Translations under genes and position numbers: made by a program
The notes under the pieces: model-generated
What the model was told of the DNA's origin: nothing
Seen by the model: only the letters and a program-made list of their open reading frames with translations
Databases searched by the model: none
Assembly: GCA_965215275.1 (NCBI GenBank)
Contig: OZ244044.1
Coordinates: 384,001 to 448,000 of the forward strand
Length of the DNA: 64,000 bases
Source of the DNA: Thermodesulfobacteriota bacterium
Lineage (GTDB): Bacteria > Desulfobacterota_D > UBA1144 > Nemesobacterales > JAJCZQ01
Direction: 5' to 3'
Shown: positions 7,869 to 52,406 of the stretch, piece after piece
Layout of the letters: every line of letters starts with the position of its first letter
Position numbering within the stretch: position 1 is the stretch's first letter

Positions 7869-7881
7869 GTAAAATAAGAAC

Positions 7882-13703: not shown

Positions 13704-15584
13704 GAAAGGACCTCATTGCTATGCATTTATCCGAGATCTTCTTTTCCTTCTGATAACTACTGACACGGGTATAAGCATCAGACATGCCACTGCTCCGAAA
13801 ATATCAGAAGCAGCGCTGCTCTGATCCGAGACGGCACATCCTCCTCCACCTCCGCCATTACCTGACGTTGGTGGTGGAACCGTTACACTGAGCATGAAAC
13901 TCACATCATCTGTATCTCCATTCCTGTCCGTTACCGTATACATGTAAGTTCTTGTTGATGCACTCCTGGGTGTGCCACTTATCCTTCCGGTGGTTTCGTT
14001 CAATCTCAATTCAGGAGGTAAGGGAGGCATTATACTGTATCTTAACGGTGCATTCCCTCCCGTTGCAGCAGGAAGCCTTATTGGACTCCCACTGTACACA
14101 TGAACTTCTATCATATCACTGCCAAATTCCGGTCTGCTGTCCTCTTCCACTGTTATACTGAACGTTAACCCTTCCATTTCATTATCCTCGTCAGCAGCGC
14201 TCCATGTATGATCAGTCTCAGACGTTGCAGCAGTCGGTGTCCCGCTTATAGTTCTGGTGGTTTCGTTAAAATCCAGTCCATCAGGTAAACCAGGCGTTAA
14301 ACTGTAAGTTAAGTTTCCATTCCCTCCCGTTGCCTCAGGCAGCACGAACGGTGTTATCGGAATTCCTGCTATGTATTCCTTATCCTCTATCATCTCACCG
14401 CCGAAACTCGGTATTGTGTTGGGTTCATTTCTTACAGTGATATGGAACATCAAAGTTCGAGCAGGTCCACCTGCACCGGTAGTAGCAGTATACGTATAGG
14501 TCCTCGCATTCTGTGTAGCAGTCGGTGTTCCGCTTATAACCCGGGTAGCAGGATCAAAACTCAATCCAATAGAAGATAAAACAGGAGTTAAACTGTACGT
14601 TACCGTTCCATTATGTCCAGTTGCCTCAGGCAGCGTTTCCATTACTGCCGTCCCGACCGTATACACCTTGCCTTGTATCTCAACGCCTGAAAAGTGTGCT
14701 CTTACGGCAAGATCGAACATCACCTCCACCGCAGTTCCGTTACCGTCTGTAACGGTATACGTATAGGTCTTCAAAGGCGTTGCAGCAGTCGGTGTTCCGC
14801 TTATAACCCGGGTGGTTCTGTCAAAGGTCAATCCGGCAGGTGGGGCAGGGGTCAGACTGTAGGTATACGGAGCAGTACCTCCCGTAGCAGCAGGCAGCGT
14901 TAATGGTGTTACTGGTCTTTCTGCCAGGTACAAAACAGGAGAAGATACCTGCCCGTCAAAGGACAGGGCCGTTATCGTAATAGAGAAGGTGCGAGTACCC
15001 GTGTCCAGATCATCGTCCATTGCCCTATACGTGTAAGTTCGACCAGGAGCAGCTATGGTCTCGGTTGGTGTTCCGCTTATAACCCGGGTGTTTTCATCAA
15101 AGTCCAGTCCGGCTGGTAAACGAACAGGGGTCAGGCTGTAGCTTACCGTTCCATTACCTCCCGTTGCCTCAGGCAGCGTTACCGGAAGGTTTGCCGATGT
15201 CCCTTGAACATATGTCTGATCAGGGATAGTCTCGCTGAAACTCGGCACTGAATTAGCTTCTATCGTATAAGAGAAGGTCAGAGTATCAGAATCACCGTCA
15301 TCAGTATCCGAGTCAGAGTCAGTTACCTTGTAGGTATAGGTTTCAGTCAGAGGCAGCATATTTGGAGCAACGTTCAATGTCCCGCTTATCTGTCGGTTGT
15401 TGCTGGTAAAGGTCAATCCAGCAGGCAAGGCAGGAGTTATACTGTAATTTAAATTTCCATTCCCGCCATCTGCCACAGGCATTCCCAGCCTTATTGGTCT
15501 GCCGTTACCAAACGTCTGATCCCTCACCTGCGTATCGCCGAAGTCCGGAACGTCAGCTGCAGCTCTTATCCTTATCCTGAACTC
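13704..15584. repeat. 1881-bp inverted-repeat arm (partner 22716..24596)
   Basis: 3' halves of A and B near-identical; only 3 amino-acid differences seen. Confidence 0.92.
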
Positions 15585-17600
15585 TATATCAGCCACATCA
15601 TTGGTTTCTAAATCTGTAGCTCTAATCGTATACTCAGTCTCCTCCAACGCTTCCATAGGTGTGCCAGTCATTCTCCAACGGGGAATACTGATGCTCAATC
15701 CACGAGGAAGAACAGTAGGAATTACACGGTAACTTCTTCTCCCAGACCCTCCTGTTAGAGGAGGTAAATCTAATGGTGTTATCTGAACTCCTTCTGTATA
15801 AACCTGATTAGGGATCGTTGCACCGCTAAAGGTTAGATCATGATGTTTAGGACCTGTCTCACTGCCAAGGGATGTAAAAATATCCCCCTTCCCGTGCCCG
15901 TAGACCTTAATGCTCCAGGAGTGTAAGGTAAAAGTATTTTCTTCATCTGCTTCATCTCCGGAAGCAGTATCGGATATATCAAGGGTCCATTCTCCGGAAG
16001 GGTCTTCTCCGAGGTGTTTAGCCGACCCGAAACGATGTGTTCTTCTTACATAACTGATCTCAGCGTCTTCTTCCTCACCTGAAAATTCCCGGACAAGTTC
16101 AGAAACTGTACCGGAAGGAGAGGTTATCCGTATATTGAGGTCCTGTAAGCAGTCACACGAGAGAACGAGTTCTACCTCAACGAATTCCGTAAATATTTCC
16201 TCCAGGTCCGAAATCATAAGTGTGGAGACAAGGACCCCGTCCGCTTCTCCTTCTCCATCAGGGATCGTCAGTTCATTATCTGAAGAAGCTGTAACGGTCC
16301 TCATTTCACCAACGCCTTTCCAGCTTCCGGCAAGCTCTGCGGCTGCTTCTGCGTCTACCACGCCAAAACCATACCTGGGACTATAATTATATCTTTCCAC
16401 GTCAGAACCGTATTTAACGGCTCCTGTCTCCCAGCTCGGATCAGAAACGTCGTTCTGCCGTGCTGAACCCGCAAGTATGAGCTTTATATCCCTCCAGCTC
16501 AGCTGTCCGTTTATCTCTCTCAGCAGTGCCGCCACCCCTGCAACCTGTGCTGCTGAAAGGAACGTTCCGGAAGTTACAACGTAATCGTCGTTGTTATCAG
16601 TGGTTACAATATCAGAACCAGGTGCACATACCCATAGATTTACTCCCTCTTCTGAAAAAATACTCTTCTTTCCAAAGCCGTCCGTTGAACAAACGGCCGT
16701 TACTCCGTAATAGCTGGAATATTCAGAAAAATTAGCCTGATCTCCGCTCTCATGCCCGTCCCCTGCTCCCCGGACATAAAATATTCCCCTGCCGTAAAAC
16801 CCTTCCCTTATACCCTCTTCCACTCCCTCTTCCACTCCCTCTTCCCACTCAGCTGAAGCACTCTGAAGAAAAACTCCGTCCTCCCGTCCCCGGTCGCTGA
16901 CGGACACTGCCGTTATTTCATTGTTGCGGACCATTGCGTCCGCTTCCCCGGGATCACCGGATAACCTGTAACTGCATACATTCGCACCGGGTGCAACTCC
17001 CCTTGCTCCCGATCCGTTGTATCCAGTTGCTGCAATTACTCCTGCCGCTCGTGTTCCGGTAAAGGATGAACCGTCAGACAGATCAACGCTTTCTGAACTG
17101 TTTTCTTCAGAACTGTTTTTTCCAGAAAGATCATAGTTCAGTCCGGAACGGACGTTTGCAGAAAGGTCCTCATGTGAAAGGTCCTCATGTGAAAGGTCCT
17201 CATGTGAAAGGTCCTCATGTGAAAGGTCCTCATGTGAAAGGTCCATACCGTCACTTACTATTGCTACATTAATTCCGGAACCGTATACGCCATCGTTCCA
17301 CACTCCCTCTGCGTTTATATCCTCTCCTGCAGTTATTTCCTTTCCTGAATAAATAAACTGCCCAGTGTTCTTCAGATGCCACTGACATCCGTATAACGGA
17401 TCTTCTGTGTCTGCACTGTTACCTCTGCATCCGGAGAACGGGTCCTTTATGCTGCCCTGTCCCCTTGTATCAACGGATATAAAACACAGAAGAAAAAAGA
17501 CAAAGAAAAGTATGAACCGTCTGCCGTTCCGGCGGGAACTGCCCGTTAAACTACGACGTTGATGGGGGGGGGGATAGAACTCATCATGTTTTTCATACAT
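13719..17600 (-). CDS. Paralog A: catalytically dead kexin-like S8 + P-domain + Ig-like repeats + Gly-Cys-TM anchor; in frame (C10)
   Basis: VAIVSDG / TGTRAAG / SGTFLSA replace D/H/S; LSWRDIK, YGFGVVDA and P-domain GEDPSGEWTL present; ISGTPT repeats; C-terminus GGGGGCAVS...IRRKRR. Confidence 0.9.
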   Translation of the reverse strand: MYEKHDEFYPPPHQRRSLTGSSRRNGRRFILFFVFFLLCFISVDTRGQGSIKDPFSGCRGNSADTEDPLYGCQWHLKNTGQFIYSGKEITAGEDINAEGVWNDGVYGSGINVAIVSDGMDLSHEDLSHEDLSHEDLSHEDLSHEDLSANVRSGLNYDLSGKNSSEENSSESVDLSDGSSFTGTRAAGVIAATGYNGSGARGVAPGANVCSYRLSGDPGEADAMVRNNEITAVSVSDRGREDGVFLQSASAEWEEGVEEGVEEGIREGFYGRGIFYVRGAGDGHESGDQANFSEYSSYYGVTAVCSTDGFGKKSIFSEEGVNLWVCAPGSDIVTTDNNDDYVVTSGTFLSAAQVAGVAALLREINGQLSWRDIKLILAGSARQNDVSDPSWETGAVKYGSDVERYNYSPRYGFGVVDAEAAAELAGSWKGVGEMRTVTASSDNELTIPDGEGEADGVLVSTLMISDLEEIFTEFVEVELVLSCDCLQDLNIRITSPSGTVSELVREFSGEEEDAEISYVRRTHRFGSAKHLGEDPSGEWTLDISDTASGDEADEENTFTLHSWSIKVYGHGKGDIFTSLGSETGPKHHDLTFSGATIPNQVYTEGVQITPLDLPPLTGGSGRRSYRVIPTVLPRGLSISIPRWRMTGTPMEALEETEYTIRATDLETNDVADIEFRIRIRAAADVPDFGDTQVRDQTFGNGRPIRLGMPVADGGNGNLNYSITPALPAGLTFTSNNRQISGTLNVAPNMLPLTETYTYKVTDSDSDTDDGDSDTLTFSYTIEANSVPSFSETIPDQTYVQGTSANLPVTLPEATGGNGTVSYSLTPVRLPAGLDFDENTRVISGTPTETIAAPGRTYTYRAMDDDLDTGTRTFSITITALSFDGQVSSPVLYLAERPVTPLTLPAATGGTAPYTYSLTPAPPAGLTFDRTTRVISGTPTAATPLKTYTYTVTDGNGTAVEVMFDLAVRAHFSGVEIQGKVYTVGTAVMETLPEATGHNGTVTYSLTPVLSSIGLSFDPATRVISGTPTATQNARTYTYTATTGAGGPARTLMFHITVRNEPNTIPSFGGEMIEDKEYIAGIPITPFVLPEATGGNGNLTYSLTPGLPDGLDFNETTRTISGTPTAATSETDHTWSAADEDNEMEGLTFSITVEEDSRPEFGSDMIEVHVYSGSPIRLPAATGGNAPLRYSIMPPLPPELRLNETTGRISGTPRSASTRTYMYTVTDRNGDTDDVSFMLSVTVPPPTSGNGGGGGGCAVSDQSSAASDIFGAVACLMLIPVSVVIRRKRRSRINA
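17161..17244. repeat. 15-bp in-frame tandem repeat x5.6 encoding (LSHED)n
   Basis: GAAAGGTCCTCATGT units; the dead paralogs have a single copy. Confidence 0.95.
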
Positions 17601-20381: not shown

Positions 20382-20538
20382 TTGACATTCGTTCATAATA
20401 CAAAGTAAAATATCAATGTTATGAAAAGATCAAATATAAAAAAGCGTATCTCCATTACCCCCCCCCCCGTGTATACCAGACCTTTCAGTTGTACACGGGT
20501 ATCCTGCAATGACAATGCCTGAGCTTATCCCCCCCCCC
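20382..20538 (+). promoter_or_regulatory. Promoter TTGACA-N18-TAAAAT, ATG 20421, and two poly-C tracts (C11 20458..20468; C10 20529..20538)
   Basis: Read directly; ATG 20421 hits TGA at 20520. Confidence 0.75.
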
Positions 20539-23500
20539 ATCAACGTCATAGTTTAACGGGCAGTTCCCGCCGGAACGGCAGACGGTTCATACTTTCCCTT
20601 GTCCTTTTTCTTCTGTGTTTTATATCCGTTGATACAAGGGGACAGGGCAGCATAAAGGACCCGTTCTCCGGATGCAGGGGCGTCAGTGCAGATACGGAAG
20701 ATCCGCTGTACGGGTGTCAGTGGCATCTGAAGAACACGGGGCAGCTTGGTTTTTCCGGAAAAGCAGTAACAGCAGGAGAAGATATAAACATAGAGGGAGT
20801 GTGGAACGAAGACGTATATGGTTCTGGAATTAACGTAGCAGTAGTAAGTAATGGAATAGACCTTTCACATGAGGACCTTTCTGCAAACGTCCGTTCCGGA
20901 CTGAACTGGAGTTATTCCGAAGAAAACAGTTCTGAAAGCGGTGACCTGTCTGATATTTCATCCTTTACCGGAACACGAGCGGCAGGTGTAATAGCAGCTT
21001 CTGGATATAACGGACTGGGAGTAAGAGGAACTGCACCTGGTGCGAGTATATACAGTTATAAGTTAACTGATGATATCAGGGAAGCGGACGCAATGGATGC
21101 AAGGGATGCAATGGTCCGTAATAAGGAAATAACTGCAGTATCGGTTAACGACTGGGGACCGGAAGATAAATATTCTCTTCATCAGGCATCATCTGTCTGG
21201 GAAGAAGGAGTGGAACTTGGAATAAAGAAAGGGTTTTATGGGAAAGGAGTGTTTTACGTCCGGGGAGCAGGGGACGGGCACGAGAATAACGATCAGGCTA
21301 ATTTTTCTGAATATTCTAATTACTACGGAGTAACTGCCGTTTGTTCAACGGACGGCTTTGGAAAAAAGAGTGTATTTTCAGAAGAGGGAGTAAATCTATG
21401 GGTATGTGCACCTGGTTCTGATATTGTAACCACTGATAACAACAACGAATACGTTGTAACTTCCGGAACATTTCTTTCAGCTTCACAGGTTGCAGGGGTG
21501 GCAGCACTGCTGAGAGAGGTTAATGGAGAACTGAGCTGGAGGGATATAAAGCTTATACTTGCGGGTTCAGCACGGCAGAACGACGTTTCTGATATTAGCT
21601 GGGAGACTGGAGCTGTTAAATACGGCTCTGACACGGAAAGATATAAATATAATCCTAAGTATGGTTTTGGCGTGGTAGACGCGGAAGCAGCTGTAGAACT
21701 TGCCAGAAGCTGGAAAGGCGTTGGTGAAATGAGAACCATTACAGCTTCTTCCGATAATGAACTGACAATTCCTGATGGAGAAGGAGAAGCAGATGGGGTC
21801 CTTGTCTCCAGACTTATGATACCGGACATGGAAGAAATATTTACGGAATTCGTTGAGGTTGAACTTGTTTTTTCTCATGACCGATTACCGGACCTTAACA
21901 TACAGATAACCTCTCCTTCCGGGACAGTATCGGAACTTGTAAGGGAGTTTTCAGTTGAGGAAGAAGACGCTGAGATCAGTTACCTGAGAAGAACACATCG
22001 TTTCGGGTCGGCTAAGCACCTCGGAGAAGACCCTTCCGGAGAATGGACCTTAAAGATATCTGATACTGCTTCCGGAGATGGAGAAGATGGGACCTTACAC
22101 TCCTGGAGCATTAAGGTATACGGGCATAAGAAGGGGGATACCGCTGCAGACCTTGCTAAGGAGATAACTACTAAAGCTTTAAATTGGGGCGGACAGACAG
22201 TTCAGGATCAGGTGTACAGAGTAGGAACTCAGATAGCACCGTTACAGCTGCCTGAGGCGACCGGGGCAGAAGGAATAACGTACAGTATAAAGCCTGGTTT
22301 ACCTGCTGGGCTGGAGTTTAACGATACCACCAGAGTTATAAGCGGAACCCCAACTAAATCGCAGTCTAATGAACGTTATCAAATTGTTGCCAGAGACGCA
22401 GACGGGAACGTGAAGGGTTTAGCGTTCCATATAAGGATAAGGTTCCGTAACTCCACGGTACCGAGTTTCAGCGATACCATCCCGGATCAGAACTATGTAA
22501 CGGGGAGATCAATAACGCCACTGGTGTTCCCTCGTGCAACGGGAGGGGATGGTCAGTTAAGGTACACTTTTGACGGCACTTTAACTAACTTACCAAATGG
22601 ATTGAGCCTTTCCAGGAATCCGTTCAGGATAATTGGAACACCAGGTAGTGGTAGTGCGGGGACAAGTACCTGGCAATATACCGCTACTGACACAGACGGG
22701 GATACTGCTACACTTGAGTTCAGGATAAGGATAAGAGCTGCAGCTGACGTTCCGGACTTCGGCGATACGCAGGTGAGGGATCAGACGTTTGGTAACGGCA
22801 GACCAATAAGGCTGGGAATGCCTGTGGCAGATGGCGGGAATGGAAATTTAAATTACAGTATAACTCCTGCCTTGCCTGCTGGATTGACCTTTACCAGCAA
22901 CAACCGACAGATAAGCGGGACATTGAACGTTGCTCCAAATATGCTGCCTCTGACTGAAACCTATACCTACAAGGTAACTGACTCTGACTTGGATATTGAT
23001 GACGGTGATTCTGATACTCTGACCTTCTCTTATACGATAGAAGCTAATTCAGTGCCGAGTTTCAGCGAGACTATCCCTGATCAGACATATGTTCAAGGGA
23101 CATCGGCAAACCTTCCGGTAACGCTGCCTGAGGCAACGGGAGGTAATGGAACGGTAAGCTACAGCCTGACCCCTGTTCGTTTACCAGCCGGACTGGACTT
23201 TGATGAAAACACCCGGGTTATAAGCGGAACACCAACCGAGACCATAGCTGCTCCTGGTCGAACTTACACGTATAGGGCAAGGGACGATGATCTGGACACG
23301 GGTACTCGCACCTTCTCTATTACGATAACGGCCCTGTCCTTTGACGGGCAGGTATCTTCTCCTGTTTTGTACCTGGCAGAAAGACCAGTAACACCATTAA
23401 CGCTGCCTGCTGCTACGGGAGGTACTGCTCCGTATACCTACAGTCTGACCCCTGCCCCACCTGCCGGATTGACCTTTGACAGAACCACCCGGGTTATAAG

Positions 23501-24581
23501 CGGAACACCGACTGCTGCAACGCCTTTGAAGACCTATACGTATACCGTTACAGACGGTAACGGAACTGCGGTGGAGGTGATGTTCGATCTTGCCGTAAGA
23601 GCACACTTTTCAGGCGTTGAGATACAAGGCAAGGTGTATACGGTCGGGACGGCAGTAATGGAAACGCTGCCTGAGGCAACTGGACATAATGGAACGGTAA
23701 CGTACAGTTTAACTCCTGTTTTATCTTCTATTGGATTGAGTTTTGATCCTGCTACCCGGGTTATAAGCGGAACACCGACTGCTACACAGAATGCGAGGAC
23801 CTATACGTATACTGCTACTACCGGTGCAGGTGGACCTGCTCGAACTTTGATGTTCCATATCACTGTAAGAAATGAACCCAACACAATACCGAGTTTCGGC
23901 GGTGAGATGATAGAGGATAAGGAATACATAGCAGGAATTCCGATAACACCGTTCGTGCTGCCTGAGGCAACGGGAGGGAATGGAAACTTAACTTACAGTT
24001 TAACGCCTGGTTTACCTGATGGACTGGATTTTAACGAAACCACCAGAACTATAAGCGGGACACCGACTGCTGCAACGTCTGAGACTGATCATACATGGAG
24101 CGCTGCTGACGAGGATAATGAAATGGAAGGGTTAACGTTCAGTATAACAGTGGAAGAGGACAGCAGACCGGAATTTGGCAGTGATATGATAGAAGTTCAT
24201 GTGTACAGTGGGAGTCCAATAAGGCTTCCTGCTGCAACGGGAGGGAATGCACCGTTAAGATACAGTATAATGCCTCCCTTACCTCCTGAATTGAGATTGA
24301 ACGAAACCACCGGAAGGATAAGTGGCACACCCAGGAGTGCATCAACAAGAACTTACATGTATACGGTAACGGACAGGAATGGAGATACAGATGATGTGAG
24401 TTTCATGCTCAGTGTAACGGTTCCACCACCAACGTCAGGTAATGGCGGAGGTGGAGGAGGATGTGCCGTCTCGGATCAGAGCAGCGCTGCTTCTGATATT
24501 TTCGGAGCAGTGGCATGTCTGATGCTTATACCCGTGTCAGTAGTTATCAGAAGGAAAAGAAGATCTCGGATAAATGCATAG
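20421..24581 (+). CDS. Paralog B: dead S8 + P + Ig repeats + anchor; phase-OFF as assembled (frame open from 20523, ORF track start 20799)
   Basis: VAVVSNG / TGTRAAG / SGTFLSA; signal peptide RRFILSLVLFLLCFISVDTRG is in frame upstream of 20799 but has no in-frame start. Confidence 0.85.
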
Positions 24582-24596
24582 CAATGAGGTCCTTTC
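22716..24596. repeat. Inverted-repeat arm (partner 13704..15584)
   Basis: Reverse complement of the 3' half of A. Confidence 0.92.
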
Positions 24597-25114: not shown

Positions 25115-28100
25115 TCATTGCCAGGTCCTTATCCGAGCTCTTTCCTTCCTTCTGATCAATACCGACACGGGTATAAGTATCAGACATGCCATTACTCCAG
25201 GAATATCATAAGCAACACTGCTCTGATCTGATACAGCACATCCTCCTCCACCTCCGCCTGGATCACTACCTGACGTTCTTGTTGGTCCTGGTCCTGGAGT
25301 AGAAGGAACCTCTGCACTGAACCTGAAGGTCAACTCTTTCATGTCTCCATTCCTGTCCGTTACCGTGTACGTGTAGGTCCTCTCAGACGACGCACTCGCG
25401 GGCGTCCCGCTTATTATCCCTGTGTTTCTGTCCAATCTCAACCCAGGAGGTAAGGGAGGCGTTATACTGTATACTAACGGTGCATTCCCTCCCGTTGCTA
25501 CCGGCAACCTTATTGATCTCCCCATGTACACCTGATCTTCTATCGTCGTCACGCTGAAGTCCGGTTCGCTGTCTTCTTCCACTGTAATACTGAACTCCAG
25601 TTCATCTGTATCATTATCTGCGTCCGTTACTGTATACGTGTAATCAGTCTCAGACGTTGCAGTAGTCGGTGTTCCGCTTATAACTTGTGTAGCAGGGGTA
25701 AAATCCAATCCGGCAGGTAAGGCAGGAGTTAAACTGTAAGTTAATGGTGCATTCCCTGACGTTGCCACAGGCAGTGTTTTTTCCATTACTGCTTCTCCGT
25801 TTATATACACCTTGTTATCTATAGTTTCACTCCCGAAGCTTGGTTCTGTGTCAGGTTCTGCTCTTACTGTGATATTGAACGTCTTTGAGTTCTTAAATCC
25901 ATCTGTGTCAGTTACCGTATAAGTATAAGTGCTTCTGGAAGTTGCAGTATCTGGAGTTCCACTTATCTCTCGGGTGGCAGGGGTAAAATCCAGTCCGGAA
26001 GGTAAATTGGGAGTTAAACTGTACGTTAACGTTCCATTATGTCCATCTGCTGCAGGCAGCACTTCTGTTACTTCTGTACCGGTTAAATACACCTTATCAT
26101 TTATCACAGCACTTGTGAAGAGTGCTCTTACAGCAATATCGAACATCAATTCAGCCGTATGTCCGTTATTGTCAGTAACGGTATACGTATAGGTAGTCCT
26201 GGGCGTTGCAGTAGTTGGTGTCCCGCGTATAGCTCTGTCATTAGAGTTATACGCTAATCCGGCTGGTAATACAGGAGTAACACTGTATATATATGGAGGA
26301 GTACCTCCCGTTGCAGCAGGCAACGAATTACTCGTTAGAGTGGGTATTGATGATAATGCATTTGCTATTAATGTATAAAAATCAGTAAAAGACCCACCGT
26401 CAAAGGCCAGGTCCGTTATAGTAATAGAGAAAGTAATACTGTCAGAATCACCGTCATCATCAGTTACCTTGTAGGTATAAGTTTGAGTTACAGGTAATCC
26501 ACTTGGAGAAACGTCGAGCGTTCCACTTAACGTTCTGGTGTTTTCGTTATAATCCAATCCATTAATTTTAATTGGATCACCTATACTATTAGTTAAACTG
26601 TAATTTAAAGTTCCATCCCCTCCCGTTGCAGCAGGCAGGGTTAACGTTACTGCTCTGCCGTTACTCCACACCTGATCTTCTACCGTCTCACTGCCGAAGC
26701 TTGGTCCAGTGTAAGCTGTTATCGTTATATGGAATTGACGGGTGCGGAAAAAACCCTGGGGACTTGAATCTGTTGCCACATATACAACATTGGTCACACC
26801 CACAGTAGTTGGTACCCCACTTAACACTCTGGTGTCACGATCAAATTCCAATCCATTAGGTAGAGGGTGAGTAAAAGCAAATCTATAATTATATGGAGCG
26901 GTCCCTCCCGTTGCTTCAGGCATCACTTCACTTACTAGTCTACCTTGTTCGTAGACCTTGTCACTAATAAGTGGCAAGGTTGTTATTTTAGTAGTTATCT
27001 CCTTGCCACGGTCTGATAAAAAAACATGCCCGTAGACCCTGATGCTCCATGAGTGTAAGGTCCCGGTATTTTCTGAATTTTCTGCTTCTCCATCTCCGGA
27101 AGCAGTATCGGATATTTTAAGGGTCCATTCTCCGGAAGGGTCTTCTCCGAGGTGTTTAGCCGACCCGAAACGATGTGTTCTTCTCAGGTAACTGATCTCA
27201 GCGCCTTCTTCCTCCCCTGAAAACTCCCTTACAAGTTCCGATACTGTCCCGGAAGGAGAGGTTATCTGTATATTGAGGTCCTGTAAGCGGTCATGAGAAA
27301 AAACAAGTTCTACCTCAACGAATTCCGTAAATATTTCCTCCAGGTCCGGTATCACAAGTCCGGAGGTAAGTACCCCGTCCGCTTCTCCATCTCCATTTTC
27401 TTCTCCATCAGGGATCGTCAGTTCATTATCTGAAGAAGCTGTAACGGTCCTCATCTCTCCAACGCCTTTCCAGTTTCTGGCAAGTTCTGCGGCTGCTTCC
27501 GCGTCTACCACGCCAAAACCATACCTGGGACTATATTTATATCTTTCCACGTCAGAACCGTATTTAACAGCTCCGGTCTCCCAGCTCATGTCAAAAAAAT
27601 CGTTCTGCCGTGCTGAACCCGCAAGTATAAGCTTTATATCCCTCCAGCTCAGCTGCCCGTTTATCTCTCTCAGCAGTGCTGCCACTCCTGCAACCTGTGA
27701 AGCTGACAGGAACGTTCCGGAAGTTACGGTGTAGCCACCACCGTTATCCGTGGTCACGATATCAGAACCAGGTGCACATACCCATAGATTTACTCCCTCT
27801 TCTGAAAAAATACTCTTCTTTCCAAAACCGTCAGTTGAACAAACGGCCGTTACTCCGTAATAGCTGGAATATTCATTAAAATTAGCCTGATCTCCGCTCT
27901 CATGCCCGTCCCCTGCTCCCCGGACGTAAAACACTCCTTTCCCGTAAAACCCTTTACTTATTCCAAGTTCCAATCCTTCTTCCCAGGAAGATGAAGCCTC
28001 CTGAAAAAAAGCTCCGTCCTCAGATCCCCGGCCGTTAACAGATACTGCGGTTATTTCTTTATTACGGACCACCGCGTCCGCTTCACTGAGATCACCGGAT

Positions 28101-28736
28101 AACCTGTAACTGTATATACTCGCACCGGGTGCTACTCCTCTTGTTCCCAGTCCGTTATATCCAGTAGCTGCAATTACACCTGCCGCTCGTGTTCCGGTAA
28201 AGGATGAACCGTCAGAAAGATCAACGCTTTCTGAACTGCTTTCTTCAGAACTGTTTTTTTCAGAATAACTCCAGTTCAGACCGGAACGGACGTTCGCAGA
28301 AAGGTCCTCATGTGAAAGGTCCATTCCATTACTTACAACTGCTATATTAATCCCGGAACCGTATACGTCATCGTTCCACACTCCCTCTATATTTATATCT
28401 TCTCCTGCAGTTATTTCCTTTCCTGAATAACTTAACTGCCCAGTGTTCTTCAGATGCCACTGACATCCGTATAACGGATCTTCCGTTTCTGTACTGATAC
28501 CTCTGCATTCAGATAACGTTTCTTCTAAGCTGCTCTGCCCTTTTGCAGCTATTACCAGTATAAACAGAAGAAATAAGACTAAAGAAAGGATTGACTTAGA
28601 TGGGGGGGGGTATTATCTTAAACATTTTTCTTATAAAATACTTATACCAGACTGAAAGTTCACGTATACACGGGGGGGGGGTAATGGAACTGCGTGTTTT
28701 TGTTTTTATGTTTGGATTTTTCATGAAATTTTTCAT
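25115..28736 (-). CDS. Paralog C: dead S8 + P + Ig repeats + anchor; phase-OFF as assembled (ORF track start 28381)
   Basis: IAVVSNG / TGTRAAG / SGTFLSA; ATG 28736 reads through C10 (28672..28681) and stops just after C9 (28602..28610); signal PSKSILSLVLFLLFILVIAAKG is in the main frame. Confidence 0.85.
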
Positions 28737-37640: not shown

Positions 37641-37725
37641 TTGACATTAGTTCATAATACGAAGTAAAATATCAGCATTGTGAAAAATTCAAACATAAAA
37701 ACGCGTAGTTCCATTACCCCCCCCC
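37641..37725 (+). promoter_or_regulatory. Promoter TTGACA-N18-TAAAAT, GTG 37680, and a C9 tract (37717..37725)
   Basis: Leader MKNSNIKTRSSITPP is homologous to the B, C and F leaders; C10 would be in frame. Confidence 0.72.
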
Positions 37726-40051
37726 ATCTAAGTCAGTCCTTGCTTTGATCTTGTTTATTCTGTGCATTATTCCTATGGCTGCAAAAGTAGAGAGCAGCGA
37801 AAAAGACCCATTATCTGAATGCAGGGGTATCAGTTCAGACGCGGAAGGTCCGCTGTACGGATGTCAGTGGCATCTGAGGAACACTGGGCAGCCCGGTTTT
37901 TCCGGAAAGGGAATGACTGCGGGAGAGGATATAAACGTGGAGGGAGTGTGGAACGACGGGATATCCGGTGCCGGGATTAACGTGGCAATAGCAAGTGACG
38001 GCATTGACCTTTCACATGAGGACCTTTCTGCGAACGTCCGTTCCGGACCTAACTGCAGTTTTTCTGAAAAGAACGGTTCAGAAGGGAACGGTCCTTCCGA
38101 CGGTCCATCCCTTTCCGGAACGCGGGCTGCAGGCGTAATAGCAGCATCCGGATACAACGGGTCGGGAGCAAGGGGAGTTGCACCCGGTGCGAACATATGC
38201 AGTTACAGGTTATCCGGTGATCCCGGTGAAGCGGACGCAATGGTCCGCAACAATGAAATAACTGCAGTGTCCGTCAGCGACCGGGGACGGGAGGACGGAG
38301 TTTTTCTTCAGAGTGCTTCAGCTGAGTGGGAAGAGGGAGTGGAAGAGGGTATAAGGGAAGGGTTTTACGGTAAAGGGGTATTTTACGTCCGGGGAGCAGG
38401 GGACGGGCACGAGAATAACGATCAGGCCGGTTTTAATGAACATTCGAATTACCATGGCGTAACCGCGGTGTGTTCAACTGACGGTTCTGGAAAGAAGAGT
38501 TTATTTTCAGAAGAGGGAGTGAATCTTTGGGTATGTGCACCGGGTTCCGATATCGTGACCACGGATAACGGTGGCGGCTACGCCGCGGCTTCCGGAACGT
38601 TCCTTTCAGCAGCACAGGCAGCAGGGGTGGCGGCACTGCTGAGAGAGATAAACGACCAGCTGAGCTGGAGGGATATAAAACTTATACTTGCGGGTTCAGC
38701 ACGGCAGAACGACGTTTCTGATCCGAGCTGGGAGACAGGAGCGGTAAAATACGGTTCCGACGTGGAAAGATACAGATACAGTAATAAGTATGGTTTTGGC
38801 GTGGTGGACGCGGAGGCAGCCACAGAACTTGCCGGAAACTGGAAAGGCGTAGGTGAAATGAGGACCGTTACAGCTTCTTCAGATAATGAACTGACGATCC
38901 CTGATGGAGAAGGAGAGGCGGACGGGGTCCCTGTTTCCGGACTTGTGATACCTGACCTTGAAAAAATAACGTTTACGGAGTTCGTTGAGGTGGAGCTTGT
39001 TTTCTCTTGTGGCTGCCTGCAGGACCTCAATATACAGATAACCTCTCCTTCCGGGACAACGTCCGAGCTTGTGCGGGAGTTTGCAAGGGGACCTTCAGCT
39101 GAGTCAGAAGACGACTGCGTCAGTTACCTGAGAAAAAAACATCGTTTCGGGTCGGCAAAACACCTCGGAGAAGACCCTTCCGGAGAATGGACCCTTGGGA
39201 TCTCCGATACTGCTTCCGGAGATGAAGAAGATGCAGAAAATACGGGGACCTTACACTCCTGGAGCATTAAGGTATACGGACATATTTTTTATCAGGGACC
39301 TGGCAGTGAGGCAGGTCCTAAACATCATGATGTAAGTTTTGGTGGTCAGACAGTTCAGGATCAGGTGTATACAGCAGGGGTCCAGATAACACCATTAGCG
39401 ATGCCTCTTGCAACAGGAGGGACACACAGTTTAACTCCTGCCTTACCTGATGGATTGAAGATTGAATTCACGGCCATGTTAGGAACACCAACTACTCCGA
39501 CGCAAAAGACTCTTTATACATGGACTGCTACACATTCAGGTGGAGATACGGATAGTCTAACGTTCAATATCAGGGTAAAGGGTACTGCAGGTGCTCCGAC
39601 CTTCGGCGGTGAGATGGTAGATGCTCAGGTGTTCATGACAGGGAGTCCAATAACACCGGTAACGTTGCCCGTGGCAACGGGAGGGGATTCTCCGTTAACT
39701 TACAGTATAAATCCCGCTTTACCGACTGGATTGGATTTCACCCCTGCTACCCGAGAGATAAGCGGCACACCGACTGCTGCGGTGAGCAGGACGGTTTATA
39801 CGTATACCGTAATGGACGCAGATGGAGACACGGCTGATCTGATGTTCGGTATCAGGGTAGTGAATCGTCCACCAGATACTGAAGTTGGTGGAGGTGGAGG
39901 AGGATGTGCTGTCTCCGAGCAGAGCAGCGTTGCTTCTGATATTCTCGGAGTAATGGCATGTTTGATGCTGATACCCGTATCAGTAGTGATCAGAAGGAAG
40001 AGAAGGTCTAAGATAAAGACTTGGCAATACTGTCCTTTCAAAGGCACCTGA
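37680..40051 (+). CDS. Paralog D: dead S8 + P + two Ig repeats + anchor; phase-OFF from GTG 37680 (ORF track start TTG 37745)
   Basis: VAIASDG / SGTRAAG / SGTFLSA; N-terminal 1.47 kb near-identical to F; 3' end identical to E. Confidence 0.85.
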
Positions 40052-41177
40052 CGGGTGAAATTTTCCGTCAGTATATCTATAGGTTGCTGATGTCGTACCT
40101 GTAGTTTATGCTTTCAATGAAAAAGATATATACACCATTATTAACAGCAAATATCAATTCGTTGAATAGAACGGGTGTATTACGCCATATGTTTTATGCC
40201 CAGATTTTTTCAAGTATGATTTGCAAGGCGTGGTAGATCATCAGTCAGGAAATGGTCGTCTGGAAAGCATAAAATACAATTCCCCAGCGAATATCAAGCA
40301 ATGATAGGGGTCATCTGCGTTTTATATGTCCAATACGAGCAAATCACCGGGTTCAAATTGTCTGGAATTTTTAATAGTTTACCCCTGTCGGTATCATAAG
40401 CATTTCCAGGATATTGAAATACAGATAAGGTATTTTCCATAACTGCATTGTCTTTTTTACCAACATCAATATAGGATACTTATTCATAAACACTTCTGAT
40501 ATAAAAAGGGGTTCCGATGGTTTTAATAACGAGAGAGATATGTAGAAACACATTAGTGGCTTCTGAGAAATTTAATGGTTAACGGATTTATAATTACTAA
40601 GTCTTTATCTGAGACCTGCTCTTCCTTCTGATCACTACTGACACAGGTATCAGCATCAGACATGCTATTACTCCGAACAGTCCAGAAACAACGTCGTTCT
40701 GGTCGGAAATTGCACATCCTCGCTTGATATTCGCTGGGGAATTGTATTTTATGCTTTCCAGACGACCATTTCCTGACTGATGATCTACCACGCCTTGCAA
40801 ATCATACTTGAAAAAATCTGGGCATAAAACATATGGCGTAATACACCCGTTCTATTCAACGAATTGATATTTGCTGTTAATAATGGTGTATATATCTTTT
40901 TCATTGAAAGCATAAACTACAGGTACGACATCAGCAACCTATAGATATACTGACGGAAAATTTCACCCGTCAGGTGCCTTTGAAAGGACAGTATTGCCAA
41001 GTCTTTATCTTAGACCTTCTCTTCCTTCTGATCACTACTGATACGGGTATCAGCATCAAACATGCCATTACTCCGAGAATATCAGAAGCAACGCTGCTCT
41101 GCTCGGAGACAGCACATCCTCCTCCACCTCCACCAACTTCAGTATCTGGTGGACGATTCACTACCCTGATACCGAAC
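39844..41177. repeat. 456-bp inverted repeat (39844..40299 / 40722..41177) with a 422-bp spacer
   Basis: Anchor-coding ends of D and E plus about 250 bp of 3' non-coding DNA are reverse complements. Confidence 0.92.
40597..40721 (-). pseudogene. Orphan C-terminal anchor cassette
   Basis: Reads RGCAISDQNDVVSGLFGVIACLMLIPVSVVIRRKSRSQIKT* with no upstream body. Confidence 0.75.
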
Positions 41178-43630
41178 GTCAGATCATCCGTATCCCCATC
41201 TTCATCCGTTACAGTATATGTATAAGCCGTTCTGCTCGCTGCAGTGGTCGGTGTCCCGCTTATCACTCGGGTATCAGGATCAAAGTCCAGTCCAGTCGGT
41301 AATGGAGGCGTTATACTGTAAGTTAATGGAGCATTCCCTCCCGCTGCCTCAGGCAGTGTTACCGGAAGGTTTGTTGCTGTTCCTGCTATGTACTCCTGAT
41401 CATCTATCGTATCACTGAAGCCTGGCACTTCGTTTGCAGCTATTGTGATACCGAACGTCAGATCATCCGTATCCCCATCTTCATCCGTTACAGTATATGT
41501 ATAAGCCGTTCTGCTCGCTGCAGTGGTCGGTGTCCCGCTTATCACTCGGGTATCAGGATCAAAGTCCAGTCCAGTCGGTAATGGAGGCGTTATACTGTAA
41601 GTTAATGGAGCATTCCCTCCAGCTGCCTCAGGCAGTGTTACCGGAAGGTTTGTTGCTGTTCCTGCTATGTACTCCTGATCATCTATCGTATCACTGAAGC
41701 CTGGCACTTCGTTTGCAGCTATTGTGATACCGAACGTCAGATCATCCGTATCCCCATCTTCATCCGTTACAGTATATGTATAAGCCGTTCTGCTCGCTGC
41801 AGTGGTCGGTGTCCCGCTTATCACTCGGGTATCAGGATCAAAGTCCAGTCCAGTCGGTAATGGAGGCGTTATACTGTAAGTTAATGGAGCATTCCCTCCC
41901 GCTGCCTCAGGCAGTGTTACCGGAAGGTTTGTTGCTGTTCCTGCTATGTACTCCTGATCATCTATCGTATCACTGAAGCCTGGCACTTCGTTTGCAGCTA
42001 TTGTGATACCGAACGTCAGATCATCCGTATCCCCATCTTCATCCGTTACAGTATATGTATAAGCCGTTCTGCTCGCTGCAGTGGTCGGTGTCCCGCTTAT
42101 CACTCGGGTATCAGGATCAAAGTCCAGTCCAGTCGGTAATGGAGGCGTTATACTGTAAGTTAATGGAGCATTCCCTCCAGCTGCCTCAGGCAGTGTTACC
42201 GGAAGGTTTGTTGCTGTTCCTGCTATGTACTCCTGATCATCTATCGTATCACTGAAGCCTGGCACTTCGTTTGCAGCTATTGTGATACCGAACGTCAGAT
42301 CATCCGTATCCCCATCTTCATCCGTTACAGTATATGTATAAGCCGTTCTGCTCGCTGCAGTGGTCGGTGTCCCGCTTATCACTCGGGTATCAGGATCAAA
42401 GTCCAGTCCAGTCGGTAATGGAGGCGTTATACTGTAAGTTAATGGAGCATTCCCTCCCGCTGCCTCAGGCAGTGTTACCGGAAGGTTTGTTGCTGTTCCT
42501 GCTACGTACTCCTGATCATCTATCGTATCACTGAAGCCTGGCACTTCGTTTGCAGCTATTGTGATACCGAACGTCAGATCATCCGTATCCCCATCTTCAT
42601 CCGTTACAGTATATGTATAAGCCGTTCTGCTCGCTGCAGTGGTCGGTGTCCCGCTTATCACTCGGGTATCAGGATCAAAGTCCAGTCCAGTCGGTAATGG
42701 AGGCGTTATACTGTAAGTTAATGGAGCATTCCCTCCCGCTGCCTCAGGCAGTGTTACCGGAAGGTTTGTTGCTGTTCCTGCTATGTACTCCTGATCATCT
42801 ATCGTATCACTGAAGCCTGGCACTTCGTTTGCAGCTATTGTGATACCGAACGTCAGATCATCCGTATCCCCATCTTCATCCGTTACAGTATATGTATAAG
42901 CCGTTCTGCTCGCTGCAGTGGTCGGTGTCCCGCTTATCACTCGGGTATCAGGATCAAAGTCCAGTCCAGTCGGTAATGGAGGCGTTATACTGTAAGTTAA
43001 TGGAGCATTCCCTCCCGCTGCCTCAGGCAGTGTTACCGGAAGGTTTGTTGCTGTTCCTGCTATGTACTCCTGATCATCTATCGTATCACTGAAGCCTGGC
43101 ACTTCGTTTGCAGCTATTGTGATACCGAACGTCAGATCATCCGTATCCCCATCTTCATCCGTTACAGTATATGTATAAGCCGTTCTGCTCGCTGCAGTGG
43201 TCGGTGTCCCGCTTATCACTCGGGTATCAGGATCAAAGTCCAGTCCAGTCGGTAATGGAGGCGTTATACTGTAAGTTAATGGAGCATTCCCTCCCGCTGC
43301 CTCAGGCAGTGTTACCGGAAGGTTTGTTGCTGTTCCTGCTACGTACTCCTGATCATCTATCGTATCACTGAAGCCTGGCACTTCGTTTGCAGCTATTGTG
43401 ATACCGAACGTCAGATCATCCGTATCCCCATCTTCATCCGTTACAGTATATGTATAAGCCGTTCTGCTCGCTGCAGTGGTCGGTGTCCCGCTTATCACTC
43501 GGGTATCAGGATCAAAGTCCAGTCCAGTCGGTAATGGAGGCGTTATACTGTAAGTTAATGGAGCATTCCCTCCCGCTGCCTCAGGCAGTGTTACCGGAAG
43601 GTTTGTTGCTGTTCCTGCTATGTACTCCTG
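40970..43630 (-). pseudogene. 3' part of paralog E (Ig repeats + anchor) disconnected by a frameshift
   Basis: A 26-bp deletion at about 43630 in one repeat unit shifts the frame; ORF track entry 40970..43498. Confidence 0.85.
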
Positions 43631-44398
43631 GCACTTCGTTTGCAGCTATTGTGATACCGAACGTCAGATCATCCGTATCCCCATCTTCATCCGTTACAGT
43701 ATATGTATAAGCCGTTCTGCTCGCTGCAGTGGTCGGTGTCCCGCTTATCACTCGGGTATCAGGATCAAAGTCCAGTCCAGTCGGTAATGGAGGCGTTATA
43801 CTGTAAGTTAATGGAGCATTCCCTCCCGCTGCCTCAGGCAGTGTTACCGGAAGGTTTGTTGCTGTTCCTGCTATGTACTCCTGATCATCTATCGTATCAC
43901 TGAAGCCTGGCACTTCGTTTGCAGCTATTGTGATACCGAACGTCAGATCATCCGTATCCCCATCTTCATCCGTTACAGTATATGTATAAGCCGTTCTGCT
44001 CGCTGCAGTGGTCGGTGTCCCGCTTATCACTCGGGTATCAGGATCAAAGTCCAGTCCAGTCGGTAATGGAGGCGTTATACTGTAAGTTAATGGAGCATTC
44101 CCTCCCGCTGCCTCAGGCAGTGTTACCGGAAGGTTTGTTGCTGTTCCTGCTATGTACTCCTGATCATCTATCGTATCACTGAAGCCTGGCACTTCGTTTG
44201 CAGCTATTGTGATACCGAACGTCAGATCATCCGTATCCCCATCTTCATCCGTTACAGTATATGTATAAGCCGTTCTGCTCGCTGCAGTGGTCGGTGTCCC
44301 GCTTATCACTCGGGTATCAGGATCAAAGTCCAGTCCAGTCGGTAATGGAGGCGTTATACTGTAAGTTAATGGAGCATTCCCTCCAGCTGCCTCAGGCA
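41168..44398. repeat. 279-bp (93-aa) tandem array, about 11.7 units, one unit 253 bp
   Basis: Antisense ORF starts recur every 279 bp except 43450 to 43703 (253 bp). Confidence 0.97.
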
Positions 44399-47057
44399 AC
44401 TCTACAGGTGTTATCGGACTGCCTGCTATGTATTCCTGATCAGCTATCTTTTCACCGCTGAGGTCTGGCATGATGTCAGCTAATATAGTGATCCCGAACG
44501 TCAACGCGGCTGTATCTCTATCTTTGTCTGTTACAGTATATGTGTAAGTAGTCTTACTCATTGCAGTAGTGGGTGTGCCGTTTAGCACTCGGGTAGCACT
44601 GTTAAAGATAAAACCATCCGGCAATAACGGATTTAGTCTATAAGTTAATGTTCCATTCCCTCCCGTTGCCCCAGGCAGCGTTACCGGTGTTATAGGAATT
44701 CCTGCTATGTACTCCTGGTCATCTATCTTTTCACCGCTAAAGGTTGGCATCGCGTCTGCCAGTATCGTGATACCGAACGTCAGATCATCCGTATCCCCGT
44801 CTTCGTCAGTTACGGTATACGTGTAGGTATTCTCAGGCGCCGCAGTGGTCGGCAGACCGCTTATTACTCGGGTAGCAGGAGCAAAACTCAATCCAGTCGG
44901 CAATGTCGGAGTTAAAACGTAAGTTAATGTTCCATTCCCTCCCGTCGCCTTAGGCAGCTTTACAGATGTTATCGGACTACCTGCTATGTACTCCCGATCA
45001 CCTATCGTATCACTGCCAAAGTCCGGTATTGTGTCACCCTTCTTATGACCATAAACTTTAATGCTCCACGAGTGTAAAGTCCCGGTATCTGCCTCTTGAG
45101 TATCAGTGATATTCAAACTCCATTCTCCAGCAGGGTCTTCTCCCAAGTGTCTGGCTGAACCAAAACGATGGGTTTGATCGGTATAACTAAAATCATCTCT
45201 TAATAATACTCTTTCGACGTCGTCCGTACTTTCACTAAGAACACTGGACTCTTCTACAAATCGCCTGACCAGCTGCGACACGGTACCGGCAGGGGACGTT
45301 ACCTGTATATTTAAATCCGGTAAGAAAGTGTGAGAAAGAACGAGTTCAACCTCTGCAAATTCCATAAATGAAAGTTCCTCACTATCGGGTACGGTCAGCG
45401 TGGATACAATTGTTCCGTCTGTTCCACCTGTGTGATCGAGGATCGCTGTATCCCCGTCTTCGGAAACGAACGTCCGAGTTGCCATTGCTCCAACGCGGTC
45501 CCAGCTTCCCGCAAGTTCCACTGCCGCCTCGGCATCCACTACCCCAAAACCGTACTTTGGATTGTAATTATAACTGTCCGTATCAGAACCGTATTTGAGT
45601 GCTCCCATCTCCCAGTCAGGGTCAGAAACGTCGTTCTGCCGTGCTGAAGCCGCCAGGATCAGCTTCAGGTCCCTCCAGCTAAGGTCACCGTTTGCCTCCC
45701 GCATCAGTGCCGCAACCCCTGAAACCTGCGCAGCTGAATATGACGTGCCACTGACCCTCAAAGCATAGCGGTCCTTATTATCCGTCGTTGTAATATTCAA
45801 ACCCGGAGCACATACCCACAGATTTACTCCCTCTTCCGAAAAAGAACTTTTAGTCCCGTCACCATCTACCGAACAGACGGTAGTTACAGCGTAGTAGTTA
45901 GAGTATTCATCAAAATTAGCTTGATCGTATTCATGGGCAGCATTTTGAGATTGAGAGCCGTATGGTGGAACAGTATCAAGCAGGTCGTGCAGATAACGGA
46001 ACCTGTCATACCCGTCTCCAGCCGCCCAGACGTAAAATACTCCCTTACCACCGAACCCTTCCCTGATACCCGTTTCTACACCTTCCTCCCACATGGCCGA
46101 AGCACTCTGAAGAACCGGTATATCCTCCGGTCCCCAGTTGTTACTGGAAACCGCCGTTACAATATGATTACGGGTCATTGCATCTTTCGCGTTAGCATCA
46201 CTGAAATTACCTGCCAAATTATAACTATAGATGCTCGCCTGTGGTGCTACACCTCTCACACCAAGCTGGTTATCACCCACTCCTGCTATAATGCCTGCTA
46301 CTTGTGTACCATGAGAACTTGAAGGGTTGAATACATTTCTGTTTCCAGAGTAATAACGGTTCAGGCTGGGATTTACATTGGCAGCTAGGTCTTCATGATC
46401 GGGGTCCATACCATTATCTACCACAGCCACGTTAATTCCATTTCCAAATACTGCATCATTCCAGACCCCCTCTATGTTTATATCTTCTCCGGCGGCTATT
46501 GCCTGCCCGTTAAAACTCAGCTGCCCCGTATTTTTCAGATGCCACTGACACCCGTATAAGGGATCATTGGTAAAATTGGTAGTAATGCCTCTGCAATCAG
46601 ATAGCAAAGTATTATAATCAGTATCTGTTGCAACTGTAAGCCGGTAACTATCAGCACCGCTGCTTCTCACAACGATATAGTACGTTCCGGGTCTGAGGCG
46701 GGTTTGTATAGTGGCCATACCGGACATAGTCACTTCAGTAGTACTTGCTATCAGATCATCATTGCTGTCACAAAGCTGTAAACTGTATTCTCGATTATTA
46801 TTGGTGAAGGTTGTCTCTATTTCTACATTGATGTCAGATGCCGGGGCTATCTGAAAATATTCCAGTCCACCGGCACTTTCAAAACTTCCATCGTGTGCCG
46901 CTGCGTCCACTGTCAATGTGGCTTCAACCGTTGCACTGGAGTCGCAATTATTATCACTGGTCTGACCATATGCACCTATGGACATAAAACATAGAAAAGA
47001 AATTAACAGTAAAACTGCTGGTATGATATTCCTTGCAGTAACGATGAATTTTTTCAT
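43581..47057 (-). CDS. Paralog E: kexin-like S8 protease with intact triad, N-terminal PPC-like domain, P-domain and Ig repeats; truncated before the anchor
   Basis: VAVVDNG, SHGTQVAG, SGTSYSA; oxyanion WAAGDG; RBS AAGGTGA before ATG 47057. Confidence 0.9.
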   Translation of the reverse strand: MKKFIVTARNIIPAVLLLISFLCFMSIGAYGQTSDNNCDSSATVEATLTVDAAAHDGSFESAGGLEYFQIAPASDINVEIETTFTNNNREYSLQLCDSNDDLIASTTEVTMSGMATIQTRLRPGTYYIVVRSSGADSYRLTVATDTDYNTLLSDCRGITTNFTNDPLYGCQWHLKNTGQLSFNGQAIAAGEDINIEGVWNDAVFGNGINVAVVDNGMDPDHEDLAANVNPSLNRYYSGNRNVFNPSSSHGTQVAGIIAGVGDNQLGVRGVAPQASIYSYNLAGNFSDANAKDAMTRNHIVTAVSSNNWGPEDIPVLQSASAMWEEGVETGIREGFGGKGVFYVWAAGDGYDRFRYLHDLLDTVPPYGSQSQNAAHEYDQANFDEYSNYYAVTTVCSVDGDGTKSSFSEEGVNLWVCAPGLNITTTDNKDRYALRVSGTSYSAAQVSGVAALMREANGDLSWRDLKLILAASARQNDVSDPDWEMGALKYGSDTDSYNYNPKYGFGVVDAEAAVELAGSWDRVGAMATRTFVSEDGDTAILDHTGGTDGTIVSTLTVPDSEELSFMEFAEVELVLSHTFLPDLNIQVTSPAGTVSQLVRRFVEESSVLSESTDDVERVLLRDDFSYTDQTHRFGSARHLGEDPAGEWSLNITDTQEADTGTLHSWSIKVYGHKKGDTIPDFGSDTIGDREYIAGSPITSVKLPKATGGNGTLTYVLTPTLPTGLSFAPATRVISGLPTTAAPENTYTYTVTDEDGDTDDLTFGITILADAMPTFSGEKIDDQEYIAGIPITPVTLPGATGGNGTLTYRLNPLLPDGFIFNSATRVLNGTPTTAMSKTTYTYTVTDKDRDTAALTFGITILADIMPDLSGEKIADQEYIAGSPITPVELPEAAGGNAPLTYSITPPLPTGLDFDPDTRVISGTPTTAASRTAYTYTVTDEDGDTDDLTFGITIAANEVPGFSDTIDDQEYIAGTATNLPVTLPEAAGGNAPLTYSITPPLPTGLDFDPDTRVISGTPTTAASRTAYTYTVTDEDGDTDDLTFGITIAANEVPGFSDTIDDQEYIAGTATNLPVTLPEAAGGNAPLTYSITPPLPTGLDFDPDTRVISGTPTTAASRTAYTYTVTDEDGDTDDLTFGITIAANEVPGVHSRNSNKPSGNTA

Positions 47058-47088
47058 TAGATTAATCACCTTTTAAGATTTTGTTCTG

Positions 47089-52364: not shown

Positions 52365-52406
52365 TCGTTAGGGGGATTATATAGTTAAGTACCGAAGATA
52401 ATATAA

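Follow-up and report, generated by a model that had tools for sequence, protein, structure and literature searches.

Kexin-type heads without a catalytic triad in a Thermodesulfobacteriota genome: a proposed phase-variable repertoire of surface-anchored binding proteins

Among the described systems closest to the genes treated here, the S8 pseudoproteases known from bacteria occur, to our knowledge, as one or two genes per genome (CspC and CspA of Clostridioides difficile), the Opa proteins of Neisseria are β-barrels, and the SMIPP-S proteins of the scabies mite are secreted proteins of trypsin-like fold for which we know of no frame switch. CspC and CspA are described as subtilisin-like pseudoproteases with conserved pseudoactive residues, which are thought to bind ligands and are needed to activate CspB (PMC7200643). 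For Opa, up to 11 gene copies, a leader repeat CTCTT, and recombination between loci are reported (PMC3960869). SMIPP-S is presented as a set of 33 proteolytically inactive members, some of which bind host proteins including complement proteins (PMC4031079). The subject of the present analysis is a window of 64,000 nucleotides, positions 384001–448000 of the single 1.99-Mb contig of a Thermodesulfobacteriota genome (OZ244044.1 of assembly GCA_965215275.1), and in it six paralogous genes, A–F, each encoding an S8 domain followed by a P domain—together called the head. Coordinates refer to the window unless the genome contig is named. Copies whose head lacks the catalytic triad, called dead in the following, are read here with moderate confidence as binding heads without catalysis, anchored at the surface on Ig stalks and phase-variable as a set, which would serve as adhesins or as a variable coat.

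All six window genes share one architecture, in which the signal peptide is followed by the S8 and P domains, by Ig (He_PIG) repeats, and by a C-terminal tail with a Gly-rich Cys part, a hydrophobic part, and a basic part; PF00082 and PF01483 score over the cut-off in each of them. Paralog E (40970..47069, minus strand) has an intact triad with Asp at 46416, His at 46311, and Ser at 45741, carries the motifs VVDNG, HGTQ, and GTSYS, and features an N-terminal PPC-like domain. The assignment of the triad sites is fixed because each motif of E has its counterpart in the alignment with ASP, a kexin-like Aeromonas protease of solved structure (E-value 1.8e-39). Paralog A (13719..17600, minus strand) encodes 1293 amino acids with signal peptide, dead S8, P domain, Ig (He_PIG) stalk, and Gly-rich-Cys/transmembrane/basic tail. 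As judged by codon places in the head alignment, it carries, on the minus strand, Ser (AGT, 17253..17255) at the catalytic Asp site, Thr (ACC, 17058..17060) at the catalytic His site, Asp (GAC, 16758..16760) at the oxyanion Asn site, and Phe (TTC, 16560..16562) at the nucleophile Ser site. Paralogs B (20422..24581, plus strand; sites at 20847, 20967, 21273, and 21471) and C (25115..28700, minus strand) likewise read Ser/Thr/Asp/Phe, and paralogs D (37680..40051, plus strand; short stalk) and F (48797..52370, minus strand) read Ser/Ser/Asp/Phe; the 5′ ends of C, D, and F are approximate. The first-pass annotation had claimed Asp to Ser, His to Thr or Ser, Ser to Phe, and WAAG to RGAG in these five paralogs next to an intact E, and the alignment of all heads confirms it, with AGT as the Ser codon at the Asp site, Thr at the His site in A, B, and C, and Ser in D and F. 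The oxyanion Asn is replaced by Asp in all six window copies, E included; Asp at this site is compatible with activity in PC2. The heads of D and F are 98.7% identical, and a stalk-and-tail block of A (13704..15584) is 99.84% identical over 1881 bp to 22716–24596 of B in inverted orientation, apparently a recent conversion or duplication. The window five are, therefore, not five independent cases: all of them lack the triad, as annotated, but they represent four independent dead heads.

Two observations on single genes may be added. Right after its dead Asp site, A carries five tandem SHEDL units (approximately 17165–17240, minus strand) and, further on, an extra EEGV unit, all in frame. In E, a stalk frameshift near 43581 parts the head from the repeats that follow and from the tail (40970–43498); it sits within near-identical Ig repeats (43498–43581, minus strand), cuts the triad-intact head off from its anchor, and may be a real release variant or an assembly error.

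The annotation spoke of six genes, but the family has 57 members genome-wide: tblastn places 57 S8 plus P heads scattered round the contig, with a family span of 178,552 bp, or 9.0% of the genome. The triad is absent in 50 heads and kept in 7. Read at the Asp, His, oxyanion, and Ser sites, the intact copies are six D-H-N-S and E as D-H-D-S. The dead states comprise 29 heads of type S-(S/T)-D-(F/V), one of them with Gly in place of the first Ser; one further member of the same clade without its first approximately 130 residues; 10 D-R-D-S; 7 D-R-(D/N)-A; one S-H-D-A; one N-gap-D-A; and an E-like gene with VVGDG at the Asp site and a frameshift at a G13 run inside the S8 domain. The S-(S/T)-D-(F/V) group contains the five dead copies of the window and is called the window clade.

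The dead heads show the signature of purifying selection. The ratio of nonsynonymous to synonymous substitutions (dN/dS) was obtained by Nei–Gojobori counting under Jukes–Cantor correction as the mean of all pairs, with intervals from 200 bootstrap replicates over columns. For the S8 domain, it amounts to 0.26 (95% interval 0.21–0.33) in the 29 genes of the window clade versus 0.31 (0.24–0.38) in the seven intact copies, and to 0.40 (0.30–0.51) and 0.28 (0.21–0.36) in the 10 D-R-D-S and the 7 D-R-x-A copies, respectively; for the P domain, the values are 0.26 in the window clade, 0.21 in D-R-D-S, 0.61 in D-R-x-A, and 0.52 in the intact copies. The pairs are not independent and recombination blurs the distances, though neither is expected to pull a neutral ratio down to 0.26. 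Among the heads of A–D, which differ by pairwise dS of 0.25–0.53, neutrality would have produced approximately 17–36 nonsense changes per pair on an equal-rate estimate, and none is seen. The S8 and P domains of the five dead window heads are free of stops, as had been annotated, and a single premature stop occurs in all 57 heads. The annotation's view of selected pseudoenzymes rather than decay is thus supported, and the dead copies are very probably inactive and yet kept by selection. Variation along the heads is highest in the loops round the cleft and, as judged by per-block entropy, does not exceed that of the intact copies.

The fold appears to be kept as well. The head of B, modeled from a 90-row alignment, is predicted with a mean predicted local distance difference test score (pLDDT) of 90 and a predicted template modeling score of 0.92. 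The model superimposes on furin with Z 49.9 and a root-mean-square deviation of 1.9 over 447 aligned residues; furin and Kex2 together give Z 49–50 and template modeling scores of 0.83–0.88, and ASP gives Z 39.6. This supports a furin/Kex2 fold and says little about the cleft, because the alignment consists mostly of active relatives. An earlier head model built on a 21-row alignment of the genome's own paralogs reached a pLDDT of 37 and was set aside.

Loss of catalysis goes in hand with gain of a frame switch. All 49 dead copies examined, out of the 50, carry a run of 8–13 C downstream of the start codon and ahead of the hydrophobic signal-peptide core; none of the seven intact copies has a run there. 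The fiftieth dead copy is the E-like gene, whose G13 run lies inside the S8 domain; E itself has a C9 run upstream of its start, and two other intact copies have runs deeper in the gene. Because kin share such traits, the association stands for a single event or a few of them rather than for 49 separate cases. Many dead copies carry a second run approximately 70 bases upstream. Counting ATG, GTG, and TTG starts, the frame across the leader run is open in 11 of the 49 copies and shifted in 38. In the window, only A is in frame, its C10 run (17564..17573, minus strand) lying between the ATG and the hydrophobic core. B (C11 at 20458..20468 and C10 at 20529..20538, plus strand), C (C10 at 28672–28681 and C9 at 28602–28610), D (C9 at 37717–37725), and F (C11 at 52326–52336) are out of frame with their own starts in the assembly.

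Four public sequencing runs were compared over A and B. The second run of B is one C longer in X1, in the only contig covering it there, and of assembled length in X4; with the additional C, the head is read in frame from the ATG at 20515. At C and D, the runs have their assembled length in X1, X3, and X4, which are deep, X7 being too thin, and their off states are real. Genome-wide, C or G runs number 78 at length 6, none at 7, 6 at 8, and 68 at 9. The gap at length 7 is the pattern expected if long runs are purposely kept. Of 139 runs of length at least 8, 77 lie within 900 bp upstream of family heads. Taken together, the dead copies switch at the run with good probability. The 62 runs of length at least 8 found elsewhere than at family 5′ ends, a few of them inside family genes, likely mark further switchable genes in the genome.

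The tail points to anchoring at the surface. A Cys/transmembrane/basic tail lies downstream of all 57 heads, in four of them in a different frame from the head because of a stalk frameshift and in one behind a stop. Its layout has the three-part form of a Cys motif, a hydrophobic helix, and a basic cluster, and Cys-CTERM signals are described as a short motif with an invariant Cys, a hydrophobic helix, and a basic cluster (10.1101/2023.06.07.544157). In Myxococcus, a CPBP-type protease is reported to cut such a tail and to anchor the protein at the surface (PMC11980579). The present genome has a single CPBP protease (PF02517), encoded directly upstream of a D-R-D-S copy (L131:1477-2121, minus strand; genome contig approximately 680800–681450), with myxosortase-type matches; it is a candidate sortase for the tail. 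One secretin occurs in the genome, with GspD as best match, scored on a 167-residue piece only. Among the matches listed for the tail of A, no other catalogued CTERM model appears; GlyGly-CTERM was considered for the tail and dropped, with no such model among the matches listed. A headless stretch resembling the sorting tail is found at 40600–40719 (minus strand), between the ends of D and E, and two further headless tails lie at genome contig 628466 and 1649931 on genes with PPC-like repeats.

The annotation had proposed one ancestral inactivation before the expansion. For the window five, this holds: in a quick tree of all 57 heads, they fall into one clade of 30 with a Shimodaira–Hasegawa-like approximate likelihood ratio (SH-aLRT) support of 100. 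For the family as a whole, a rooted tree was computed from 32 of the 57 copies—the E-like frameshifted gene being among those omitted—with 10 outside relatives as root and the four catalytic columns excluded. In this tree, all of the 25 dead copies sampled group as a single clade (SH-aLRT 98), sister to E (87), and one ancestral loss of the triad for the whole family is the likely history under the best tree. A single origin is, however, not secured, because approximately unbiased tests do not reject trees that join the D-R-D-S or the D-R-x-A copies with the intact ones (p 0.39 and 0.27). The triad was also not lost all at once: its residues went in steps, and the intermediates D-R-S, D-R-A, and S-x-V survive in other copies. 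At the His site, His CAT, Arg CGT, Ser AGT, and Thr ACC are all extant in the genome; at the Ser site, the codons are Ser TCA, Ala GCA, Val GTC, and Phe TTC; and at the Asp site, Asp GAT, Asn AAT or Gly GGT, and Ser AGT. The loss would have followed these codons in the order given.

The heads also recombine. When the window-clade heads are cut into four segments and the nearest neighbor of each segment is determined, the neighbor changes by segment in many heads, often at 0% distance. Head 34856 starts with a segment closest to A and ends with two that match 788049 exactly; head 1728315 is nearest to 1008058 in its first half (0–1.5% apart) and to C in the second (0–0.2%).

Outside the genome, the family has near and distant relatives. 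The four other genomes of the taxonomic family (80–99% complete) give no match at an E-value of 1e-20; absence from the same genus does not follow from this because its genome is 80% complete in 190 contigs. In the phylum as a whole, 8 of the other 119 genomes have a distant relative of 32–35% identity. The family also occurs beyond this assembly, since 17 proteins from other assemblies are 69–97% identical to copies here, dead states included, the dead forms at 77–96%. The next relatives, at approximately 37–43% identity to A, belong among the best 80 of 235 to records named Dehalococcoidia or Chloroflexota and to one Candidatus Aldehydirespirator; five of these genomes gave 3–29 matched pieces each. 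Their names lead us to take these records for sponge symbionts. Sponge genome sets of that sort exist, which is as far as the source goes here (PMC8163846). Among these relatives, 79 of 81 heads keep the triad; so do 49 of 59 more distant matches and, in a set of cluster representatives, 139 of 153 heads. Dead heads thus appear to arise occasionally in the wider family and to dominate only in this genome. One outside protein, P0135, has five heads, all without the triad. A separate outside group of type D-H-S-D, with Asp in place of the nucleophile and Ser in the oxyanion position (P0089, P0091, P0105, P0110, P0116, P0117, and P0120), often with LRR domains, is a candidate for a second pseudoprotease lineage or for altered chemistry.

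Just upstream of E lies a gene for a protein of 203 amino acids of no known family (47542..48153, minus strand), called the partner. In 61 of 80 outside loci, a relative of it lies upstream of the S8 gene; this genome has it twice, beside E and beside its E-like sister (genome contig 518962–519564, minus strand). The protein ends in a conserved SPNW motif followed by a basic residue. ASP is reported to need ORF2 to mature, and ORF2 ends in Lys (PMC5638518); by analogy, the partner may be a separate chaperone or a stand-alone propeptide.

From these parts, the following course is proposed. The family would have been acquired as a unit of partner gene and protease from a Dehalococcoidia-like lineage; the transfer is read from the distribution of the relatives, and its direction is presumed. 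His would have been lost early, to Arg, followed by expansion and stepwise remodeling of the cleft, with the predicted furin/Kex2 fold of the head retained. The protein would be exported by type II secretion, and its tail cut and lipid-anchored by the single CPBP protease. Slippage at the run would turn each copy on or off so that cells show differing subsets, and the intact proteases would stay on. In the last and least certain step, the remodeled cleft or the head surface would bind host matrix, host cells, or other microbes.

Several points weigh against this course. The last 80 residues of A score 13.2 against a cut-off of 22.5 for TIGR04564 (Synerg-CTERM), and the CPBP protease stays under every listed cut-off. 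The head model of B, built on mostly active relatives, cannot show the shape of the cleft. The window clade varies no more than the intact copies, and dN/dS is below 1 overall, which gives no sign of strong diversifying selection. A change in run length is seen at B only and comes from contigs; a homopolymer consensus error could also explain it.

The first alternative is that the dead heads are decoys or traps, whose old cleft captures inhibitors or proteases of the host, or substrates, so that the seven active proteases or the cell are shielded. Both D-R groups, 10 D-R-S and 7 D-R-A copies, keep the substrate strand NWGP, and most keep WAAG. A sponge archaeon is reported with expanded S8 proteases and serpins side by side (PMC6790972), and the dead proteases of SMIPP-S offer a precedent in the binding of complement proteins (PMC4031079). 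In the window clade, however, the cleft is altered further: all 29 heads have Phe or Val in place of the nucleophile, 25 of 29 have lost the Trp of NWGP, mostly to Arg, and most also have Arg instead of the Trp that precedes the oxyanion site, all of which should hinder canonical inhibitors. A shield would also gain little from 38 of 49 copies being off, and we consider this explanation unlikely.

Alternatively, the proteins may have a structural role, in a surface layer or as spacers, with the head as a stable cap without specific binding; switching would then help the cell to evade phages or grazers. The uniform purifying selection without hypervariable excess fits this, as does the range of gene spans in the window clade from 2.4 to 4.2 kb; the 62 other long C/G runs would make switching a general habit of the genome. 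Yet three groups each fixed their own state of the cleft, and 28 sites are fixed differently between the window clade and the intact copies, which would be needless for a plain cap. A purely structural role, hence, seems quite unlikely.

Regulation, with dead heads pairing with active proteases as CspC and CspA act on CspB, for whose activation they are needed (PMC7200643), finds a parallel in the outside relatives P0131, P0132, P0133, and P0137, which combine dead and live S8 heads within a single chain. With 50 dead against 7 live copies, dispersed over the chromosome and under separate switches, a repertoire nevertheless fits better than a fixed partner, and the CspC model scores 33 against a cut-off of 675; such a role is very unlikely. 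Catalysis retained or gained by another arrangement would be most plausible in the ten D-R-S copies, all of which keep Asp and Ser together with an invariant cleft strand. It is highly improbable, as Arg is a poor general base at neutral pH and A–D and F have Phe at the nucleophile site and no general base. Least of all can the copies be selfish or decaying duplicates held open by gene conversion, with the out-of-frame copies as true pseudogenes or assembly errors at homopolymers: conversion is frequent, the frame is shifted in 38 of 49 copies, a stop interrupts one head, another is missing approximately 130 residues at its start, four stalks are frameshifted, and long-read consensus is prone to homopolymer errors, but conversion does not lower dN/dS, the value of 0.26 equals that of the intact copies, contigs of three public runs confirm the off lengths in C and D, and dead forms recur in other assemblies, so that this explanation is largely refuted.

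The reading as a switchable set of binding heads would join pseudoenzymes and phase-variable surface families in one system. It carries a wider proposition, which we regard as evenly balanced: that in a small-genome bacterium a borrowed furin-like protease became a 50-gene, individually switchable, and recombining repertoire, with seven active copies kept free of the switch and the series of active-site loss preserved. It would be the first bacterial case of a variable coat built on a dead enzyme. The natural series of intermediates lends itself to studying the abandonment and reuse of an enzyme site. Should the organism live in an animal host, as we suppose, it becomes testable whether invertebrate symbionts vary their surface like mucosal bacteria.

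Some further features of the window deserve mention. Two IS1595-family transposases, at 12323–13264 (plus strand) and 52576–53514 (minus strand), flank the six-paralog cluster. A tmRNA at 121–473 is followed by a lower-GC block (1091–9048, plus strand) that encodes a DUF6361 protein, a protein of 638 amino acids without Pfam match, a helicase, and a Fic protein, and is a candidate defence island; a C12 run is located at 592–603. A lone 5S rRNA gene (54526–54640, minus strand) lies between rpoD and purN.

No account of a dead-kexin surface family was found in the open-access literature, subscription papers and supplements lying outside the search; comparison is with systems that share single traits. 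With the MYXO-, JDVT-, and Synerg-CTERM systems and their CPBP myxosortases, the family shares the Cys motif, helix, and basic cluster of the tail, and the genome encodes a single candidate CPBP protease and one GspD-like secretin; it differs by a tail that stays below the TIGR04564 cut-off and has a longer spacer after the Cys. SMIPP-S is likewise a large set of inactive serine protease paralogs, but an animal one and unrelated in sequence. Neisseria Opa works alike without including the present genes as members: its paralogs are scattered, a frame-shifting repeat sits in the leader-coding region, and recombination reassorts the loci, whereas here a dead kexin head stands on an Ig stalk, the repeat is a poly-C run, and 49 copies can be switched. 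CspC and CspA share the subtilisin-like fold with a substituted triad, but are one or two soluble spore proteins with prodomains, as opposed to 50 membrane-tailed, stalked, and switchable paralogs with P domains; the best scores are 33.1 against a cut-off of 675 for NF040808 (CspC) and 17.1 against 1250 for NF040809. The heads are, thus, kexin-subfamily S8 by fold that fail the triad, and are neither CspC nor CspA. With the kexin proteases furin, Kex2, and Aeromonas sobria ASP, they share the order of S8 and then P domain, and ASP is the best sequence match. In the window clade, approximately 20–25 residues separate the signal peptide from S8, with no propeptide in the same chain; ASP itself has none. 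The pair of partner and protease differs from ASP–ORF2 in that the partner lies upstream and ORF2 downstream, and the 48-row partner profile has no PDB match and nothing credible in Pfam, so that no homology between the two was found there. From these kexin proteases, the family is set apart by the loss of the triad in 50 of 57 heads, the Ig stalk with its sorting tail, and the dispersal of 57 copies over the chromosome.

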